Source of the DNA: Candidatus Helarchaeota archaeon
GTDB lineage: Archaea; Asgardarchaeota; Lokiarchaeia; Helarchaeales; RDOG01
Assembly (NCBI GenBank): GCA_019058315.1
Contig: JAHPZH010000001.1
Location: 96,001-160,000, forward strand
DNA length: 64,000 bases
Direction: 5' to 3'
Made by a program: the position numbers and the translations under genes. The stretch's first letter is position 1, and every line of letters starts with the position of its first letter. Positions 14,498-24,175 of the stretch are shown one piece after another. The notes under the pieces are model-generated. The model did not search any database and was not told the DNA's origin. It worked only from the letters and a program-made list of their open reading frames with translations.

Positions 14498-16000
14498 TTG
14501 AAAAGTTATGACGTAATTATCATTCATCCACCAAGAGTAATGGAACCAGATTATGGTAAGCACACAAAATTTGTTCGAAGTACATATATTTTTATTCCAA
14601 TGGGTGTTTTTGCAATTGCTGACTTTCTTGAGAGGGAAGGGTTTGGAGTTAAAATTATTAATTATCCTTTAGAGCAATATTTAAACCGGAAATGGTCTTT
14701 GGCTGAGTTTCTTAAAAAAATTAATTTTAAGGTATGTGGAATAGATTTACATTGGATCCACAACGCACATGGAGTCATTGAAACTGCAAAGATTGTGAAA
14801 GAGGTAAATCCTAATGCTAAAGTGGTTTTCGGAGGTTTTAGCGCTTCTTATTATCATGATCAATTATTGAAATACTATAAAAATATTGATGCAGTAATTA
14901 GAGGAGAAGGTGAAATTCCTCTTTTGAATTACGTTCGTAATACTAATAAAAATCATGATTTAGATTCTGTGGCTAATTTATCTTATCGAAATGCCTCTAA
15001 TCACATCAAAATTAATCCTATTTCTTATGTAGCAAAATCATTGAATGAATTCAATTTTACTAATGTAAATCTCTTAGAGAATGCAAAAAAATATTTCGAG
15101 TATAGTAGAAGAATTATGGGAATTTCTCTTAATCTACCCATAGCTAGAGGATGTCCCTTCAATTGTCCTTGTTGTGCAGGAGGGCAAAGGGCTCAACAAA
15201 AATTATCGGGACGGGATAAGGTAATTTTCAGAAACCCAGAAAAAGTAATAGAAGATATCCACAATATCTTGGATAAATATAACATCCCTAGCGTTTTTTT
15301 TGGACATGGTACCTATCCCACAAATTTGAAATATTGGAAAAATCTTTTTAAATTGATTCGTAAGGAAAAGTTCGATATTAGCGGTGATTTGGAAATATGG
15401 AGGCTGCCATATCCCAAAGATATGTGGGAATTGTTTTATAAGACCTTCACTCGTAGACATTCATCGATTAGTATTTCTCCTCGAACTATGTCTACAAATG
15501 TACATAATAAGGTTGCAAAAATCTGTGATCCTACTTTTCAATTTCCTAAAAATCAAATTCAAGATTTAATAAAAAATGCAAATTTATTCAGAATGACTCT
15601 AAGAATATGGTTAACAATAGGTTATCCATTTCAAACCCGTAGAGATGTTCTTAAAGATTATTTATTTACAATAAAATGTCTCATAAAATATGGAAGTTCC
15701 AATTTCAAACCAATTACTATTATGAGTGAACCATATTATATTTTTCCTGGTTCACCTGCTCATGAGGATCCCAAAAGTTTTGGAATCAAATTAGATTATA
15801 ATTCCTTTCCACAAATAGTTGATGCATTTAAAAGAATAAAAGTAACATATACAAATAGAGTTTTAAACTATGAAACTAAGTATTTTTCGAAAACCACAAA
15901 TCTTATAATAAATGATCTATTATTTTTAACTGCTGCACCCATGTTTTTAACGAGAGGTGCGAAATATCCCAAAGAAAAAGATGTAACTATTTTTAAGTAA
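14498..16000 (+). CDS. cobalamin-binding radical SAM protein (class B methyltransferase-like)
   Basis: N-terminal B12-binding domain (PMGV, GIDLHW, VVFGGFSAS, IRGEGE) and ARGCPFNCPCC. Confidence 0.85.
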   Translation: MKSYDVIIIHPPRVMEPDYGKHTKFVRSTYIFIPMGVFAIADFLEREGFGVKIINYPLEQYLNRKWSLAEFLKKINFKVCGIDLHWIHNAHGVIETAKIVKEVNPNAKVVFGGFSASYYHDQLLKYYKNIDAVIRGEGEIPLLNYVRNTNKNHDLDSVANLSYRNASNHIKINPISYVAKSLNEFNFTNVNLLENAKKYFEYSRRIMGISLNLPIARGCPFNCPCCAGGQRAQQKLSGRDKVIFRNPEKVIEDIHNILDKYNIPSVFFGHGTYPTNLKYWKNLFKLIRKEKFDISGDLEIWRLPYPKDMWELFYKTFTRRHSSISISPRTMSTNVHNKVAKICDPTFQFPKNQIQDLIKNANLFRMTLRIWLTIGYPFQTRRDVLKDYLFTIKCLIKYGSSNFKPITIMSEPYYIFPGSPAHEDPKSFGIKLDYNSFPQIVDAFKRIKVTYTNRVLNYETKYFSKTTNLIINDLLFLTAAPMFLTRGAKYPKEKDVTIFK

Positions 16001-16139: not shown

Positions 16140-16715
16140 TTGAAAGACAATAGCTTTTCTAAATTATTTGTATTAAGCTTCATAATATTTATTTTTAGTT
16201 CTTTAATGCTCCCAATTATCAAATATTTTATTGATATCATCGCTGAAATGTTATTTGTATTCCAATATAAATTCTTTTATCAATTTCATATCAACTTTAA
16301 TTTATTATTATTCGAAGAAATTCTTCCCTATTTGATTTTAGCTTGGTTAATTAGTGAAATGTTCATTTGTCCTTGTATAATTAAAGCAAGACTCTCCAAG
16401 AGATTCAAAAATTTTATTTTAAGTTATATAATGAAGAAAAAATTTGACCATTTCGAATTTAATTCAATAAAATATGAAAATAAAAGGAAGCAATCCAAAG
16501 AGAAGAAAACTAGTGATGAAATATATGTTCATTTTACTCCTAAATTAGGAAAAAATGAATCCCATTTTAATCAAGAGAGAATAAAATATAATAATAATCC
16601 TCCTGATTATAATATTTCAAATTTTTTAAGAAAATTTTCAAATATCTTTAATATTTTTTTATTATTTTTTTCAAATTTTTTTTCAAACCTATGTTCACTA
16701 TGGAGGGGGAAATAA
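16140..16715 (+). CDS. hypothetical membrane protein
   Basis: GGAG SD before TTG, two hydrophobic N-terminal segments, low complexity. Confidence 0.4.
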   Translation: MKDNSFSKLFVLSFIIFIFSSLMLPIIKYFIDIIAEMLFVFQYKFFYQFHINFNLLLFEEILPYLILAWLISEMFICPCIIKARLSKRFKNFILSYIMKKKFDHFEFNSIKYENKRKQSKEKKTSDEIYVHFTPKLGKNESHFNQERIKYNNNPPDYNISNFLRKFSNIFNIFLLFFSNFFSNLCSLWRGK

Positions 16716-16838: not shown

Positions 16839-18242
16839 TTGGATTGGAAACCCGAAATAAATGAATTATATGAAAAAGTAACAAGTCAAGTACCAGAAGC
16901 ATTTCGAGATGCTGTAAAACCAATGCTTAGGCAAGCTGCAGAGAAAGCTGCGATACTCCGTAATTCTGCCTATGTAAGCGAAGATGATTTACTGTCATCT
17001 CTATTTGATATTACACCAGAGGCATTTAAACCAACGGTTGTATCAGATTTGGAAAATTTAGGAATTGCTACAGGAAAATATATTGAACTATCAGAGATAA
17101 GAAAAGACTATTCACGCACTTGGGATGAGATTAGTGGAGCATTTCTACCAGGGGTGTATCATTTTACTATGTTTTTAACTGATAGATGTAATCAGAAATG
17201 TATGCATTGTGCTGCTGAAAATCCTATACATCGTCCCGAACTCTCAACTGAACAATGGATTCAAATTATAGAAAATGTTGAACAGACCCTTAGAAAACGT
17301 GGTAGAAGGGGTTGCTATATATGGTTTGGTGGTGATCCAACTTTACGTAAAGATTTGAAAGATCTTATAAAATACTGTGGGGAAAAAGGTTATTACCAAG
17401 CAGTTTCAACTAATGGAATGCTATTTACAGAAGAACTTGCAAAACTTTGTGCAGAAGTTAAAATGTCACATGTTTTTATTAGCTTTGATAGTGTTTATCC
17501 TGAAAGAGCTGCAAAGATAAGAGGAGTTCCAAAAGCTTACGAGGCAGCAGAAAAAGCTATTAAATTAGCACTGAAATATGGCCATTTTGTAATTTGTACA
17601 GCAACAGTACAAAAAACCAATTTTGACGAACTTGATGAAATAAAACAACTCATGGAGAGTTGGGGTGTAATCCCTTATTTCAGAGCCGTTATAAAACAGA
17701 GAAGTGCTGCAGTAAACTGGGATGAGATTGGACTAAGTCATGAGGAATATAAAAAGTTCTATGAATTTAAATATAAACATGTTGTTGAGGCTATTAGAAA
17801 AGGTGAGGGTTCATCTCTCAATAAATTCTATACTTATGATATGGTTCCTTTTATGGAATGTCCAATAAATATAAAAGAACTTACTGCACTTGAATGGGGA
17901 GTTGGTTGTCAAGCATGTCGGTCAGTTTCGGGTATAGATATAAATGGAGATTTTTTTCCATGTGATTATCCTTCAGAATTAACTCTTGGAAACGTATTAA
18001 AACAACCCTTCGATGAAATAATGGAATCTCAGCTTTTTAAGGATATAAGAGATAGAAAAAGAATCGGCAAATGCGCATCATGTCACCATCTCGAATTGTG
18101 TGGAGGAGGTTGTCGAGTACATGCAGAATGTGAGACTGGAGATTTTTTTGAATCATTTCCGTATTGTTGGCATGAAATGGATCATAAACATGAAGAAATT
18201 GCTGAAGTTCCTAAAGAAAAAGAGATACCCGCAAGTAAATAA
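16839..18242 (+). CDS. radical SAM/SPASM protein with N-terminal PCP_red/DUF2621-like helical domain
   Basis: CNQKCMHC, FGGDP, SPASM cysteines (CQAC...PC...KCASC....CGGGCR...YC). Confidence 0.9.
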   Translation: MDWKPEINELYEKVTSQVPEAFRDAVKPMLRQAAEKAAILRNSAYVSEDDLLSSLFDITPEAFKPTVVSDLENLGIATGKYIELSEIRKDYSRTWDEISGAFLPGVYHFTMFLTDRCNQKCMHCAAENPIHRPELSTEQWIQIIENVEQTLRKRGRRGCYIWFGGDPTLRKDLKDLIKYCGEKGYYQAVSTNGMLFTEELAKLCAEVKMSHVFISFDSVYPERAAKIRGVPKAYEAAEKAIKLALKYGHFVICTATVQKTNFDELDEIKQLMESWGVIPYFRAVIKQRSAAVNWDEIGLSHEEYKKFYEFKYKHVVEAIRKGEGSSLNKFYTYDMVPFMECPINIKELTALEWGVGCQACRSVSGIDINGDFFPCDYPSELTLGNVLKQPFDEIMESQLFKDIRDRKRIGKCASCHHLELCGGGCRVHAECETGDFFESFPYCWHEMDHKHEEIAEVPKEKEIPASK

Positions 18243-18266
18243 TTTAAATGAATATGGTGTAAATTC

Positions 18267-19679
18267 ATGGAATGGGAAGAAGAAACCAAAGATTTATACA
18301 AAAAAATAACTGAAAATATTCCTGAAGGCTTTCGGAACTCAGTAAAACCCTTAATTTACGAAGCAGCAGAGAAAAGATGCGTAGAACGTAATGGATCCTA
18401 TGTTAACGAAGCAGATTTAATAACTGCAATTTTTGATATAACTCCAGAAGCATTTAAAGCTATGATGACTGATGATCTAAAATCCTTGGGGATTAACGTT
18501 GAAAGATACATTGAACTTAAAGATATTAGAGATCGATATAGACTTTCATGGCAAAAGCTAGAAGATGCTTTTCATCCGGGAAATGTACACTTTGCAATGT
18601 ATATTACAGAAAAGTGTAATCAAAAATGTTTGCATTGTGCCGCAGATGAAAAAGTTGAACGCCCTGAGTTAACAACAGAACAATGGTGTGAAATAATAGA
18701 GAATATTGAGACAGGATTGAGAAAAAATGGTCGACGTGCTTGTTTTATATGGTTTGGAGGAGAGCCCACATTGCGGGAAGACATCCATGATATCATGAAG
18801 TTCTGTGGTGATAAAGGTTACTATCATGCAATAATAACCAATGGTGTGAGGTTTGCAGAAGAATTTGCTAAATCTTGCTCTGATAATGGAATGAGCCACG
18901 TTTTTGTGAGTTTCGACAGTGCAGATCCTATAAAAAACGATAAAATACGCGGAATGCCCGGTGGAAAAACCTTAGAATCGGCAAAGAAAGCAATCGATAA
19001 TTGCTTGAAGTATGGTTTATTCGTTTGCTCATCAATAACCGTAATGAAACATAATATTGATGAACTTGAAGATCTAAAAGCAATATCCGAGAGTTGGGGT
19101 TCACAACCATATTTTAGAGCAGTGGTTAAACAAAATAGAGCTGCTGATTATTGGGATGAAATTGGTTTAAGTCAAGAGGACTATAAAAAATTATATGAAT
19201 TTAAGTATAAACATGCCATAGAAGCTATAAGGGATGGAAAGGCAGGAACTCTACCAGCATACGAAATATATGAAATGACACCCTTTATGGAATGTCCTAA
19301 GGACGACAAGGAAATGACTGGAATTGAGTGGGGTGTTGGATGTCTCGCTTGCAGAACTATGATGGGCATTGGGGTTGATGGAACTATATATCCTTGTGGT
19401 TATCCTACTAAACTGACACTAGGTAATGCATTGAAAGATAAATTTGAAGATGTTCTTAATACACAAATTTATAAAGATATTCGAGATAGGAAGCGCACTG
19501 GTAAATGTGGAGAATGTCACCACCTTAAATATTGCGGTGGAGGATGTAGAGTGCATACAGAATGCGAAACTGGGGACTTCTTCGCTTCTTTCCCTTACTG
19601 CTGGCATGAAATGGATCATGAACATGAAAAACTAGAAGGTTTTGTTAAGGAAAAAGAATTAGAAATTATAAAGAAATAA
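18267..19679 (+). CDS. radical SAM/SPASM protein (paralogue of 16839) with the same N-terminal helical domain
   Basis: CNQKCLHC, FGGEP and SPASM cysteines; colinear with the upstream ORF over its full length. Confidence 0.9.
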   Translation: MEWEEETKDLYKKITENIPEGFRNSVKPLIYEAAEKRCVERNGSYVNEADLITAIFDITPEAFKAMMTDDLKSLGINVERYIELKDIRDRYRLSWQKLEDAFHPGNVHFAMYITEKCNQKCLHCAADEKVERPELTTEQWCEIIENIETGLRKNGRRACFIWFGGEPTLREDIHDIMKFCGDKGYYHAIITNGVRFAEEFAKSCSDNGMSHVFVSFDSADPIKNDKIRGMPGGKTLESAKKAIDNCLKYGLFVCSSITVMKHNIDELEDLKAISESWGSQPYFRAVVKQNRAADYWDEIGLSQEDYKKLYEFKYKHAIEAIRDGKAGTLPAYEIYEMTPFMECPKDDKEMTGIEWGVGCLACRTMMGIGVDGTIYPCGYPTKLTLGNALKDKFEDVLNTQIYKDIRDRKRTGKCGECHHLKYCGGGCRVHTECETGDFFASFPYCWHEMDHEHEKLEGFVKEKELEIIKK

Positions 19680-19689
19680 AAATCAAAAA

Positions 19690-20103
19690 ATGGAGTTGAT
19701 GAAAATTATAAACACGAAAGAAGAATGGGAATCTTATTTAGATAAATTCATAGAGGGTTATAATATTTTACCTGAGTTACCTGCAATAATTCAATCCATA
19801 GCCCCATTGGTTTTTAATTATGTAATAACTGATCGCCCAGAAATGAGCTATTGGTTTTTAATAGAAAAAGACAAAATAAGTTGGGGATTGGGGCAATATT
19901 CTGGAACTAATCATCCAACTATCATCCATAAGACTGATTTTGAGACCATGAAAAAGGTTAATTCAGGTGAGACTGATCCTATTCAAGCAACAATGTTGGG
20001 GACTTATAATGTCGATGGTGATGTTTCTAAACTCATGGCATGTGCATCCTTACTTCCGCTTGGAGTAAAAGCACATGCTTATGCTCTAGAAAAAATAAAA
20101 TAA
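19690..20103 (+). CDS. SCP2 sterol/lipid-binding domain protein
   Basis: 'TDFETMKKVNSGETDPIQATMLGTYNVDGD' fits the SCP2 pattern (G..DP..A...G...V.GD). Confidence 0.75.
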   Translation: MELMKIINTKEEWESYLDKFIEGYNILPELPAIIQSIAPLVFNYVITDRPEMSYWFLIEKDKISWGLGQYSGTNHPTIIHKTDFETMKKVNSGETDPIQATMLGTYNVDGDVSKLMACASLLPLGVKAHAYALEKIK

Positions 20104-20115
20104 TGGAGTAATAAA

Positions 20116-21324
20116 ATGAATTTTAAATATAATACAGATATAGAAAAGATGCATTATGATATTATAAAGGCTGCTAAACTCGCTGATGCTCCATACAATG
20201 AAGATATAATTCAAAGAATTCTTAAAGCTTATAAGGATTTTTTTAGAGGTTCGGTTGTTACCTTTGTAACTTCAACTAAGCCAAAGAACAAACGCACTCT
20301 GTCAATCCGTTATGTGGAAATAGATGTTAAACATGATCCTTATGAAATTGCGATATCTAATAATCTACTTAAACAAGAAAAACATTTAATCCACCATTTA
20401 TTAACCGAAATTAAAAGTAATTATCCCATTATGGGGTATGGAGTGGATGCTGACGTAAATTATGGTGTAACGAAAATTTGGAGTTTCTTTCAAATTCCAC
20501 AACCCTTAGAAAAAGCATTTAAAACACCTGCAGTTCCTGAAAGTATCCAGAAATTTACAGATTATTTTAAAAAATATGACCTTGATGTTTTTCATCTATT
20601 TGCTTTAGATTTCCGTAATAAAACTGCTAATGTATATTTTATGGTGAAGGATCCAAAAGCAAACCCAGCTGATAAGGTTGCGAACATGATTTCAGACTTA
20701 GGTTTAAAAGTTCCATCACAAGAGATACTTGAACATTGCTCCAAAGCATTAACAATTTATCTTACATTTGCGTGGGAATCCTCCATGGTTGATAGAATAT
20801 GTTTCGGAACTGCCGTTGATGATCCTAGCTTGATCCCAACACATTTAGACCCATTATTAAAAAAGTATTCACAAAATGCACCATTTCAATCAAAAAATCG
20901 CCTATTTATTTACAGTATAACACCATCACGTTCAGGTGACTATATCAAAATCGAAAATGATTATATGGGGGAGATGATTAATTTAATGAAATCTGGAATT
21001 CAAGCTGAAGTTTGGATGGATGACTTAAAAAAACAAAGAGAAAATGTTCAGCCAAAAACTGTTGAACTAAGTGGGGTTAAGTGGGTAGATGGAGTTTCAA
21101 TATTATTTGAAAAAATTACAGATGATATTCCCGAGACGTTCCGTTCATTTGTAAAACCTATGCTGCTTGAAACTGCCGAAAAAAAAAGTCAAATTAGAAA
21201 TGGAAATGGAATTACTGAATCGGATCTTATAACTGCACTATTAGAAATAACACCAGAACCATTCAAACCTGACGCAATTAATAATTTGAAAAAATTAGGA
21301 GTAGATATGCAAAAATATATTTAA
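20116..21324 (+). CDS. ABBA-type soluble aromatic prenyltransferase (NphB/CloQ family) with C-terminal helical tag domain
   Basis: YGVDADV..GVTKIWSFF, ALDF..KTANVYF, IYLTFAW....DRICF and YIKIENDY match PT-barrel strands of NphB/CloQ. Confidence 0.85.
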   Translation: MNFKYNTDIEKMHYDIIKAAKLADAPYNEDIIQRILKAYKDFFRGSVVTFVTSTKPKNKRTLSIRYVEIDVKHDPYEIAISNNLLKQEKHLIHHLLTEIKSNYPIMGYGVDADVNYGVTKIWSFFQIPQPLEKAFKTPAVPESIQKFTDYFKKYDLDVFHLFALDFRNKTANVYFMVKDPKANPADKVANMISDLGLKVPSQEILEHCSKALTIYLTFAWESSMVDRICFGTAVDDPSLIPTHLDPLLKKYSQNAPFQSKNRLFIYSITPSRSGDYIKIENDYMGEMINLMKSGIQAEVWMDDLKKQRENVQPKTVELSGVKWVDGVSILFEKITDDIPETFRSFVKPMLLETAEKKSQIRNGNGITESDLITALLEITPEPFKPDAINNLKKLGVDMQKYI

Positions 21325-21363
21325 TTCTTAATTTTTTGATCACAAAATAAAAATTAAAAGGAA

Positions 21364-22773
21364 GTGATTGCAATTCAATTTACTGTAGCAACAAATTGGG
21401 ATTTTAAACTAATAGATGAATTAGCTAAATACCCTGTGAAAGATATTTATGGAGTTGCAAAATTTTCGATAGTTGGTCATGGTAGACCCTCATTTTTATT
21501 AAATGAAGTTTCAGAAGAAGAAATTGCGGAGTATATTCGAAAAATTCATGAGAAAAAAATGAAATTTTCTTATTTATTAAATGCACCTTGTATGAATAAC
21601 ATGGAATATGATGCTGAATATCATAAAAAGCTGTTAAATTACATTCAATGGATTTGTGATATTGGATCAGATAATGTAATAGTTACAACACCTTTTTTAA
21701 TCAGTCTTATTAAAGAACAATTTCCAAAATTGAAAATTCGGGTTTCAACTATAGCCCACGTTAATAGTGTGAATCGAGCAAAATTCTATGAAGCATTGGG
21801 TGCAGAAGAAATCACTCCTGATGTAATGATTAATCGCGATTTTAAGACTTTGATAAAAATTAAAAAAGCAGTGAAATGTGACATTGTTCTGCTTTTAACT
21901 GATGGTTGTTTATATCAATGTCCCTTTAGATATTATCATTATAATATCCTTGGGCATTCTTCCCAATCTTCCCACATACTTGGAGGTAATTATGTAGATT
22001 TTTGCATATTAAATTGTAGTGCTATTAAATTCTCTAATCCTACCGAAGTAATTAAAGCAAGATGGGTTCGCCCTGAAGATTTATCCCATTATGAAGCTAT
22101 CGGGATTGATAAATTTAAAATTGCTGGACGCCGTATGCCTACTAAATGGATTCTTCGAGCAGTGAAAGCATTTTCTTCTCGAAAATATAATGGGAATCTT
22201 ATAGATATAATCCAAGGTTTTTCTATGTCCGTTGGGGTTGAGAAAGATCCAAATGCTAAATTTATCGACACGATTGATAAAGAGCCTAAAGCAAAACTTA
22301 TAATTGATAATACTAAATTGGATGGTTTTATTGATTTTTTTAAAAAACAAGATTGTATATCAATGTGTGATGACTGCAAATATTGTGAAAATTGGGCAAA
22401 AAAAGCTGTAATTCTTGATAAAGAGCAAGCTCCTAGGTATGTCGAATCATTAGAAGGTTATATTAAAGATATCACTACGAGCCGAGAATTTGGTATTGAA
22501 TCGGTTAAACCAGAAAAGAAGAAGAAAAAAGGCTTAGAATGGAATCCTGAAACTGAAAAAATTTTTGAGGATTTAATTCAACTATCTCCCCAACAATTCC
22601 AATCAATGGCAAAGATGGTTATTTCTTCAATGTCAGAAGAAAATGCAAAAAAAAGAGATTCTAAGGTAGTAGAAAACCAAGATATTGTAAAAGCATTTAT
22701 TGCTGGAACTCCTGAACCTTTTCAAGCAGATATGAGAGAAGGACTTAAAAAATATGGTCTATTAAACGAATGA
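21364..22773 (+). CDS. U32 family Fe-S protein (O2-independent hydroxylase type) with C-terminal helical tag domain
   Basis: GHGR, YLLNAPC, STIAHV, GCLYQCPFRYYH, DFC...C, WVRPEDL, FKIAGR, extra C..C..C..C cluster. Confidence 0.85.
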   Translation: MIAIQFTVATNWDFKLIDELAKYPVKDIYGVAKFSIVGHGRPSFLLNEVSEEEIAEYIRKIHEKKMKFSYLLNAPCMNNMEYDAEYHKKLLNYIQWICDIGSDNVIVTTPFLISLIKEQFPKLKIRVSTIAHVNSVNRAKFYEALGAEEITPDVMINRDFKTLIKIKKAVKCDIVLLLTDGCLYQCPFRYYHYNILGHSSQSSHILGGNYVDFCILNCSAIKFSNPTEVIKARWVRPEDLSHYEAIGIDKFKIAGRRMPTKWILRAVKAFSSRKYNGNLIDIIQGFSMSVGVEKDPNAKFIDTIDKEPKAKLIIDNTKLDGFIDFFKKQDCISMCDDCKYCENWAKKAVILDKEQAPRYVESLEGYIKDITTSREFGIESVKPEKKKKKGLEWNPETEKIFEDLIQLSPQQFQSMAKMVISSMSEENAKKRDSKVVENQDIVKAFIAGTPEPFQADMREGLKKYGLLNE

Positions 22774-22814: not shown

Positions 22815-23438
22815 TTGAAAACTGTTATAATAACCTCACCACACCCCGATGATGCTGTATTAGGTTGTGGTGGAACAATCATCAAATCCATCCAAGAAAA
22901 TACACAAGTTTATGTCATTTATCTAACAGATGGAAGGGCTTGTTATACTTATCTTAAAATTAAATCCAATTTAACTCCATCAGATGTTGCAGCAGGAAGA
23001 AAGAAAGAAGCAATAGAAAGTTGTAGAATTTTAGGAGTTCCAGAATCAAATCTAAAATTTCTTGAAATTTGGGATAGAGAACTTGGGAAACCAAAAAATT
23101 TTAAAAAAGCACTAGCTGCTGTAAAAGAATTAGTGAGAAAAACTAATCCTTATAGAATCTTTGGTCCAGTTTTTAAAAATAGACATATTGATCATCAAGC
23201 AACCCATGATATTATATTAGAAGTTCTTAAAGATTGTCCTGATATTGAATTTTATATGTACGGTCTTCAGAAATCTATTGGAAAATCAGATTTAAAAATT
23301 GATATAACTAGTGTTAGAGAACAAAGAGCAAAAGCTATGTTTATTCACGAAATTGAGCTTGTTTATGAAAGAGATATTTATAAAATTTTAGCAAAACAAA
23401 CAAAGGAAAGATTTAGATTATATAGAAGAAGTAATTAA
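22815..23438 (+). CDS. PIG-L/LmbE family deacetylase
   Basis: SPHPDDAVLGCGG, LTDG, R..EA...LG, HIDH. Confidence 0.9.
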   Translation: MKTVIITSPHPDDAVLGCGGTIIKSIQENTQVYVIYLTDGRACYTYLKIKSNLTPSDVAAGRKKEAIESCRILGVPESNLKFLEIWDRELGKPKNFKKALAAVKELVRKTNPYRIFGPVFKNRHIDHQATHDIILEVLKDCPDIEFYMYGLQKSIGKSDLKIDITSVREQRAKAMFIHEIELVYERDIYKILAKQTKERFRLYRRSN

Positions 23439-23644: not shown

Positions 23645-24175
23645 TTGAAAAGGTCTTCTTGGCAAGGATTATTCATCTTATTTAACCTTTGTGGGATTAT
23701 TCTTGCAATTTCTGGTATATTACTTGCCACGCTTGCCTTAAATGATTTCATAATTTTGGCTAATAATAGCTATATTTTTAGATTTTTTTGGGGATTCATA
23801 GAAATTTGGCTTAATTTTCTATTTTTTATTACTAGTATTGTCCCCTTATCTCTGGATATAGTCGCGATAATTTTAAGTATTGAGGCAGCAATTTCCGTTA
23901 TCAGCCTAATTCTCTTACTTGATTTTTCTCAGGTTCAAGGGTGGCGATTTAGGTTCTTAATTTTTAGTGGTATTTTTAATGTAGTACTTATTTGTATTGG
24001 ATTAGGTCTATTTGATGCTACATTAATTAACGCAAAAGTGAATTGGCTACTAGGAACATTCTTCTTTACTCCTTTAACCTCCTTAGGCGGTTCAATCCCT
24101 ATTTTAATAGGAGTAGCACTTATGGGTGTCAATGTATATATATTTTTTAGTATGAGAAAAGACAAAAATTATTAA
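23645..24175 (+). CDS. hypothetical multi-pass membrane protein
   Basis: About four hydrophobic segments; GAGG upstream of TTG. Confidence 0.6.
   Translation: MKRSSWQGLFILFNLCGIILAISGILLATLALNDFIILANNSYIFRFFWGFIEIWLNFLFFITSIVPLSLDIVAIILSIEAAISVISLILLLDFSQVQGWRFRFLIFSGIFNVVLICIGLGLFDATLINAKVNWLLGTFFFTPLTSLGGSIPILIGVALMGVNVYIFFSMRKDKNY

Follow-up and report, generated by a model that had tools for sequence, protein, structure and literature searches.

An uncharacterized helical domain shared by unrelated enzymes of a conserved Asgard gene cluster, a possible landing pad for an SCP2 lipid carrier

Introduction

In the anaerobic Ubi system, U32-family iron-sulfur (Fe-S) proteins and an SCP2 lipid carrier act on a prenylated aromatic compound without O2 (Pelosi et al. 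2019, PMC6747719). Two of the U32 proteins, UbiU and UbiV, pair as a heterodimer, and in Zymomonas ubiT is fused to ubiU (PMC6747719). Here, we analyzed a stretch of 64,000 nucleotides (the window) from Candidatus Helarchaeota archaeon (assembly GCA_019058315.1, contig JAHPZH010000001.1 of 1.48 Mb, positions 96,001 to 160,000 of the forward strand), in which one operon encodes a U32 protein, an SCP2 protein, two radical S-adenosylmethionine enzymes with SPASM domains (rSAM-SPASM), and an aromatic prenyltransferase (PT) of the ABBA fold. All of these proteins except SCP2 carry the same small helical domain (the tag).

Like the set of UbiT, UbiU, and UbiV, which hydroxylates a ubiquinone precursor without O2, the operon brings together a U32 protein with conserved Fe-S cysteines and an SCP2 protein. 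The UbiU-UbiV heterodimer and the ubiT-ubiU fusion are paralleled by pairs of a small U32 protein and a U32-tag-SCP2 fusion in other Asgard archaea, whereas the genome studied here has a single U32 protein rather than two paralogues. Further differences, also from the UbiJ-UbiK Ubi metabolon, are that no Ubi enzyme carries a common tag, that prenylation would be performed by a soluble ABBA enzyme and not by UbiA, and that rSAM-SPASM and B12-binding rSAM (B12-rSAM) enzymes stand in place of the Ubi methylases and decarboxylase.

Two kinds of portable domain in other pathways invite comparison. Dockerin-cohesin pairs and the docking domains of polyketide synthases and nonribosomal peptide synthetases are, like the tag, small non-catalytic terminal modules, and they place enzymes in one assembly; here, no cohesin-like scaffold or complementary docking pair is evident, and docking by the tag is putative. 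The PqqD-like recognition element (RRE) of ribosomally synthesized and posttranslationally modified peptide (RiPP) clusters is likewise a small domain fused to, or encoded beside, unrelated cluster enzymes, at either terminus and also in stand-alone forms. It is a winged helix with a three-stranded beta-sheet and works with a precursor peptide, whereas the tag is a predicted four-helix bundle in a pathway with a presumed lipid-like small-molecule substrate.

Results and Discussion

Four enzymes of one operon share a helical domain

The operon comprises five genes with gaps of 10 to 39 nt between them, as follows (E-values and bit scores are those of Pfam matches).

16839..18242, + strand: rSAM-SPASM A, with an N-terminal tag (16839-17087); Radical_SAM 4.8e-21, SPASM 4.7e-10, DUF2621 5.5e-4
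18267..19679, + strand: rSAM-SPASM B, a paralogue of A, with an N-terminal tag (18267-18515)
19690..20103, + strand: SCP2 lipid-carrier protein, stand-alone and untagged; SCP2 22.3 bits (cut-off 21.3)
20116..21324, + strand: PTase_Orf2 (ABBA) aromatic prenyltransferase, with a C-terminal tag (21061-21321); PTase_Orf2 1.8e-63 over residues 8-292
21364..22773, + strand: U32-family protein (UbiU/UbiV/TrhP-like), with a C-terminal tag (22516-22770); Peptidase_U32 9.1e-13, DUF2621 2.1e-5

An earlier note on this DNA had proposed that one helical tag occurs at the N termini of both rSAM-SPASM enzymes and at the C termini of the PT and the U32 protein, and alignment, BLAST, and hidden Markov model (HMM) comparisons bore this out. 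The four stretches can be aligned without opening an internal gap, and 13 columns of the alignment are invariant (W3, P19, F22, K27, E35, R41, D50, T59, P60, E61, F63, L71, and G75). At proteome scale, BLAST E-values for the six pairs range from 2.5e-30 to 1.8e-7 (2.5e-30 for rSAM A against rSAM B, about 1e-23 for the PT against either rSAM, and 4e-9 to 1.8e-7 for U32 against the others). An HMM built from the four copies, a check that the note had suggested, matched these four places only when run on the whole 5.79-Mb genome (E <= 0.01). The tag is about 83 residues long instead of the 76 or so first given, and several spacings in the motif written for it are off by one.

Each half of the tag consists of a helix, a P-[ED]-x-F motif, and a second helix. 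The internal duplication noticed earlier received moderate support when one half was aligned with the other (hhalign probability 80.6%, E 1.3e-5, 25 columns), and the four-copy alignment agrees that no Cys or His is conserved. Because the tag has no conserved Cys, His, or other nucleophile, and because near-invariance across the family is limited to W3, P19, and P60, its role is, as judged from residue conservation, structural or binding and non-catalytic.

AlphaFold2 modeled the rSAM B tag, with 129 relatives, at pLDDT 93.7 and pTM 0.84. Apart from one small beta-bridge, the model consists of four helices, in which two helix-P-[ED]-x-F-helix hairpins are predicted to close into a bundle. The suggested kinship to PCP_red and DUF2621 was supported, DUF2621 being the closer: at E <= 0.01, Pfam DUF2621 (PF11084) matches 95 of the 129 relatives (best E 8.7e-12) and PCP_red (PF08369) matches 26 (best E 5.5e-7). 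The window tags taken alone score 28.3 (U32), 25.6 (rSAM B), 24.2 (rSAM A), and 15.5 bits (PT) against DUF2621, and only the U32 tag passes the gathering cut-off of 27.7 bits; none reaches the PCP_red gathering cut-off of 32.5 bits (best, 15.4 bits, E 0.019).

A fold search of the ESM Atlas gave TM scores of 0.93 and 0.91 over 83 residues to an 85-aa cluster (47% DUF2621) and of 0.87 to a 96-aa DUF2621 cluster, so the predicted tag shares the fold of stand-alone DUF2621 members. BchZ and PCP_red clusters followed with TM scores of 0.68 to 0.69 over 63 residues, and the fold was also matched by DUF2621 domains fused to VOC/glyoxalase and to FMN-reductase (FMN_red/Flavodoxin_2) domains. PCP_red, the C-terminal domain of ChlB/BchB, probably shares the four-helix fold with the tag and has nuclear magnetic resonance structures, 2KRU and 2L09; VIA-align gave Z 5.6 for 2KRU (60 aligned residues, root mean square deviation [rmsd] 2.8) and Z 6.4 for 2L09, values that small helical bundles reach as background. 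Profile searches with the tag against PDB sequences returned nothing significant and did not recover 2KRU or BchB, and Foldseek against the PDB returned only histone H2B (E ~0.1). By its predicted structure and profile matches, the tag is an independently folding domain of the DUF2621/PCP_red fold group. Its partners set it apart from the described members: here the domain is joined to enzymes of the rSAM, U32, and ABBA prenyltransferase families and accompanies SCP2. Our literature search found no paper on the function of DUF2621 or PCP_red.

The best solved neighbors were AAA+ lids (BchI, 1G8P; Z 8.3, 71 aligned residues, rmsd 2.6). Such a Z is typical of models without a true match, and, whereas an AAA+ lid follows a P-loop ATPase core, the tagged proteins contain no ATPase domain.

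Portability of the tag

With the tag as the query, 1.84 billion representative proteins were searched, and 251 matched at E <= 1e-3. Among the best 150 matches together with PT homologues, TPR proteins being set aside, the architectures (written from the N to the C terminus) were U32-tag (24 proteins), PT-tag (15), tag-PT (15), tag-rSAM (12), SCP2-tag (2), U32-tag-SCP2 (1), and LuxC-tag-rSAM (1), along with many short stand-alone copies. Tandem tags within one chain were found in SCP2-tag-tag, U32-tag-tag, and tag-tag proteins. The PT of the window carries its tag at residues 316-402, and among its relatives some are tagged at the C terminus and some at the N terminus, some are fused to SCP2, and some lack a tag. 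The description of the tag as a portable module is upheld by its presence at either terminus of one PT family, by its several entries into that family, and by its occurrence alone or in tandem.

A tree of 148 tags, for which a quick method was used and whose 90 columns set a limit, sorts the tags by host enzyme class and not by genome. The rSAM-A and rSAM-B tags fall together with one clade of N-terminal PT tags (support 95), C-terminal PT tags form a separate group (92), U32 tags lie elsewhere (95), and the other N-terminal PT tags are scattered; the tag of rSAM A from the window groups with those of orthologous rSAM-A genes. Because PT tags sit in several places in this tree, the PT gained a tag more than once.

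P0077 (949 aa) joins a LuxC acyl-CoA reductase, a tag, and an rSAM-SPASM enzyme, and P0060 (1104 aa) combines a U32 domain, two tags, and three SCP2 domains. The contigs that encode the SCP2-tag proteins P0062 and P0089 are short and carry no enzyme genes. On a bacterial metagenome contig (L018:684-4766), a stand-alone 95-aa DUF2621 protein is encoded between Oxidored_FMN and Toluene_X (FadL-type) outer-membrane channel genes, and an Amidohydro_2 gene lies upstream. This neighborhood, which lacks SCP2, is one of hydrophobic aromatic metabolism.

Long, multi-stretch matches to the tag HMM (850 to 1600 aa) proved to be TPR_10/TPR_12 STAND NTPases and were not counted as tagged proteins. They arise because the unit that makes up half a tag recurs in these TPR-like proteins as a 46-aa repeat: P0051, P0068, and P0083 carry arrays of helix-PDAFRP-helix repeats of this length that align with each tag half, and the HMM reaches E-values as low as 8e-19 by summing many weak repeats. 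TPR_10/TPR_12 proteins are repeat arrays (solenoids), whereas the tag is a predicted closed bundle of two units, and Pfam TPR models match none of the 129 tags. We treat the likeness as a resemblance of motifs, which may reflect distant origin or convergence.

Tagged enzymes and SCP2 recur together in a conserved cluster

Of 251 genomes sampled from the phylum, 20 contain tags, typically 4 to 10 apiece and in close proximity. The SCP2 family of the operon occurs in 17 genomes, all 17 of them tag positive, and in 0 of the 231 tag-negative genomes. We then considered 34 loci from species-representative genomes, gathered with the SCP2 gene as the sole criterion; all are Asgard apart from Ca. Deferrimicrobium. 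In these clusters the tag is close to obligatory. The complete genes in these loci were tag-rSAM (40), B12-rSAM (32, none tagged), tag-PT (24), free SCP2 (21), U32-tag (20), U32-tag-SCP2 (14), small untagged U32 (14), rSAM-SCP2 (3), PT-tag (2), SCP2-tag-PT (1), U32-tag-tag (1), and a tag alone in a 64-aa open reading frame (ORF) (1). Tagged PTs in these loci thus number 26, plus the one SCP2-tag-PT; tagged U32 proteins were totaled at 36.

All 14 U32-tag-SCP2 genes (668 to 689 aa) are directly preceded by a gene for a small untagged U32 protein of ~383 aa (L015:8392-11599, L017:12729-15993, L016:4756-7906, and 11 more loci [L023-L056]). The window represents the free-SCP2 variant of the cluster, and the C-terminal position of its PT tag is rare in Asgard genomes and is seen in Thermoplasmata and Deferrimicrobium. 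The pair of a small U32 and a U32-tag-SCP2 gene is absent from its genome, which has one U32-tag gene and a free SCP2 gene.

On one JGI metagenome contig (L058:4307-7306), a single chain of 999 aa has the order tag-rSAM-tag-PT-SCP2. The same cluster contains U32-tag, tag-rSAM, and two B12-rSAM genes, and directly beside it lie genes for an entire shikimate pathway of the archaeal type, with chorismate mutase at its end (neighbors to 19446). U32 hydroxylation is prephenate dependent. The shikimate neighborhood hints at a chorismate-derived aromatic head group or at prephenate as the oxygen donor for U32.

The claim that these enzymes share one pathway is well supported, because more than 30 genomes, counted at species level, have the same gene set and because the 999-aa chain joins rSAM, PT, and SCP2, and it holds independently of the tag. 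The conserved anaerobic cluster comprises two rSAM-SPASM enzymes, an ABBA prenyltransferase, at least one U32 protein, and a dedicated SCP2. A more distant rSAM-SPASM family (502 to 525 aa) carries the cluster-specific SCP2 at its C terminus and has no tag (L005:9243-10763, from Thermoplasmata [CP070629], and L017:8398-11515).

A possible landing pad for SCP2

Our favored and still tentative reading is that the tag may be a common landing pad by which the SCP2 carrier engages each enzyme. Copies of the tag have been joined, on several occasions and at N as well as C termini, to all catalytic units of the cluster other than the B12-rSAM enzymes. Each copy would sit on a short linker beside the active site of its enzyme, and the tags would give unrelated enzymes one common interface. 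SCP2, loaded with a hydrophobic prenylated aromatic intermediate, would dock on each enzyme in turn via the tag, and the intermediate would be handed between soluble enzymes without release.

Linkers between tag and catalytic domain measure 5 to 15 aa, and those between tag and fused SCP2 measure 30 to 50 aa and are predicted to be disordered. Several features of the architectures and of their distribution are consistent with a landing pad. Where SCP2 is fused, the tag usually lies between it and the enzyme (the 14 U32-tag-SCP2 proteins and SCP2-tag-PT; SCP2-tag and SCP2-tag-tag proteins also occur), and some enzymes with an SCP2 of their own lack the tag (rSAM-SCP2 and SCP2-PT). Within the genome studied, all four tag copies lie in this operon, and across the sampled genomes this SCP2 family occurs strictly where tags do. 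That the tag-rSAM-tag-PT-SCP2 chain keeps its two tags, although its parts are already covalently linked, would be expected of a site-specific landing pad rather than of a mere co-localizer. SCP2 is also the best-conserved part of the system (mean column identity, 68%, versus 36% for the tags), which fits a hub with many partners.

A predicted complex of tag and SCP2 had an ipSAE of 0.32, and none of three controls exceeded 0.00; its runs agreed in at least 93% of contacts, and partner pLDDT was at least 82. The mark used for such predictions admits 58 of 80 solved complexes along with 2 of 110 mismatched pairs; at scores of 0.60 or less, it admits only 7 of the 80 solved complexes and both of the mismatches that pass, so the prediction lends weak support to tag-SCP2 binding. 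The earlier note had pictured a metabolon assembled around SCP2. Its portable module and its shared pathway have stood; docking to SCP2 or to other tags is only plausible, on the architectures, the co-occurrence, and this one weak prediction, and it is on that footing that we infer SCP2 as the binding partner and the hand-over of substrate.

Other observations weigh against a landing pad. AlphaFold2 rendered a natural tag-linker-SCP2 segment as two well-folded domains with a disordered linker and no confident packing (pTM 0.56), a result that, given this score and the linker, says nothing about how tag and SCP2 pack. Tags of different enzyme classes are 25 to 30% identical, and no conserved surface patch was mapped; charge complementarity is absent, since the tags (mean net charges of -1 to -5) and SCP2 (about -5) are all acidic. 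The same fold is attached to BchB/BchZ, VOC/glyoxalase, and FMN-reductase enzymes, all without SCP2, stand-alone DUF2621 genes also occur in clusters without SCP2, and one locus has a tag-rSAM gene and an untagged PT gene with no SCP2 gene within 8 kb. Co-occurrence and clustering, moreover, are equally expected from plain membership in one gene cluster.

A broader and more doubtful proposal is that the tag serves as a pathway-wide address, with which Asgard archaea, some Thermoplasmata, and some bacteria would build a prenylated aromatic, quinone-like lipid anaerobically on a carrier-protein assembly line, the SCP2 carrier being free or tethered as a swinging arm. Were this true, the tag would be a small-molecule, lipid-carrier counterpart of acyl carrier protein docking or of the RRE.

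Literature searches on DUF2621/PCP_red and on the gene combination found no relevant paper. The domain family is known in Pfam as a domain of unknown function, and a pathway-wide tag that travels with SCP2 in an Asgard cluster appears to be undescribed; the layout hints that the enzymes of an anaerobic biosynthetic pathway may be kept together in a manner not described before. Should the tag prove to be a docking surface for SCP2, it would represent a new, genetically portable form of metabolon organization for water-insoluble intermediates and would provide the first function for DUF2621/PCP_red-type domains. The tag also marks out a conserved, uncharacterized anaerobic pathway in Asgard archaea, whose membrane and electron-carrier chemistry bears on models of eukaryote origins. 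Its HMM picks out further pathway members in metagenomes, and the natural fusions indicate which proteins to co-express.

Other roles for the tag

Instead of binding SCP2, the tags could bind one another, in homotypic or heterotypic contacts that gather the enzymes, with SCP2 either free or acting as a swinging arm through fusions of the U32-tag-SCP2 type. We consider this unlikely, on a mixed record. Tandem tags within one chain are in keeping with such contacts, as are the clusters without a free SCP2, which tether it behind a tag by the disordered 30- to 50-aa linker. The resemblance of each tag half to the 46-aa TPR-like repeat points the same way, TPRs being a classic protein-protein module, and the weak structural neighbors (histone fold and AAA+ lid) are oligomer contact elements; these structural similarities are, however, within the common range for small helical bundles. 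The SCP2 of the window is untagged, so contacts between tags alone would not recruit it, and both tags are kept in the 999-aa chain, where co-localization is already assured.

An equally unlikely role is that of a substrate lid, the tag capping or lining the active-site entrance and recognizing the constant part of a hydrophobic aromatic or prenylated substrate; the tag would then be the small-molecule equivalent of an RRE. It is a live alternative because enzymes without SCP2 (BchB/BchZ, VOC, and FMN reductase) also bear the fold. The C-terminal helical domain of BchB acts as a lid for protochlorophyllide in DPOR, and the tag is kin in sequence and fold to the PCP_red domain of BchB/BchZ. Enzymes bearing the fold (VOC/glyoxalase, FMN_red/Flavodoxin_2, and U32) act on planar hydrophobic substrates, and the stand-alone DUF2621 gene described above has Oxidored_FMN, Amidohydro_2, and Toluene_X genes beside it. 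Very short linkers (5 to 15 aa), the retention of tags in the all-in-one 999-aa fusion, and the grouping of tags by enzyme class, as if each were co-adapted to its own catalytic domain, would also suit a lid. A fixed lid is awkward, however, to reconcile with a tag at either terminus of one PT fold; the domain is small, strongly charged, and predicted to be a closed bundle with no evident cavity, and a dedicated lipid binder, SCP2, is already present.

Recruitment of the enzymes to some other partner, either a protein with two transmembrane (TM) segments that would anchor them to the membrane or a common reductant or chaperone, seems improbable. A conserved protein of 230 to 250 aa with two N-terminal TM segments is encoded ahead of tag-rSAM in 20 of the 34 loci (e.g., L015:2114-2806 and L011:819-1514), a membrane-like ORF holds the same place in the window, and the product of the pathway is presumably a membrane lipid. 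Yet the ORF in the window has no detectable homology to the two-TM protein, the PT needs no reductant, and gene neighborhood is the sole tie between the tag and the two-TM protein.

A new kind of RRE that binds the leader of a peptide substrate in an operon maturing a ribosomal peptide is very improbable: rSAM-SPASM enzymes often have an N-terminal peptide-binding domain, and RiPP clusters do put one recognition domain on several unrelated enzymes, but no PqqD/RRE match was found in the window tags or their 129 relatives, the tag is predicted to be all helical rather than a winged helix, a search for precursor peptides found conserved short reading frames only inside known genes and none between genes, the invariable extra member of the cluster is an SCP2 lipid carrier, and one relative adjoins a complete shikimate/chorismate-mutase gene set.

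Further features of the operon and its flanks

The two rSAM-SPASM enzymes are ~60% identical in their catalytic parts. Their nearest NCBIfam models are AhbD, AhbC, and NirJ, at 124 to 145 bits, far below the cut-offs of 500 to 650. AhbD, AhbC, and NirJ are tetrapyrrole side-chain enzymes, and BchB/BchZ, which contain a domain related to the tag, are tetrapyrrole reductases; this may be a coincidence or a clue to the substrate.

In the U32 protein, the only one of its kind in the genome, a Lys-rich linker separates the U32 domain from the C-terminal tag. A motif of four cysteines, C331-x3-C-x2-C-x2-C341 (residues 331, 335, 338, and 341), is kept in 11 to 12 of 12 relatives. Four more cysteines (C182, C186, C214, and C218) make up another set, kept in 8 to 10 of the 12. 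The two sets suggest two putative Fe-S sites, compared with the single cluster per subunit in UbiU/UbiV. SCP2 is likewise the only member of its family in the genome, and its relatives are 60 to 76% identical across Asgard archaea and Ca. Deferrimicrobium.

Three further features flank the operon.

14498..16000, + strand: B12-rSAM enzyme (Pfam B12-binding and Radical_SAM), untagged, preceding the operon
16140..16715, + strand: membrane-like low-complexity ORF with four TM-like segments, doubtful as a gene
22815..23438, + strand: PIG-L/LmbE-type deacetylase (Pfam PIG-L 4.7e-26), downstream of the U32 gene

The ORF at 16140-16715, which occupies the position of the two-TM protein of related loci, has no Pfam or NCBIfam match, and profile comparisons of the membrane-like ORFs of the window with the conserved membrane proteins of other clusters detected no homology. 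The PIG-L gene has no match in the related loci L011 and L015-L017. Neither of these two is conserved in related clusters, nor are the ORF at 23645-24175, a GFO/IDH/MocA gene, and a 388-aa ORF. The B12-rSAM gene is a conserved neighbor of the cluster: its orthologues head the related clusters L015 (E 4.5e-232) and L058, and its product matches a TIGR04190-like NCBIfam model at 249 bits, below the cut-off of that model. The closest relatives of the proteins of this genome were labeled Promethearchaeota, Hermodarchaeota, and Thorarchaeota.

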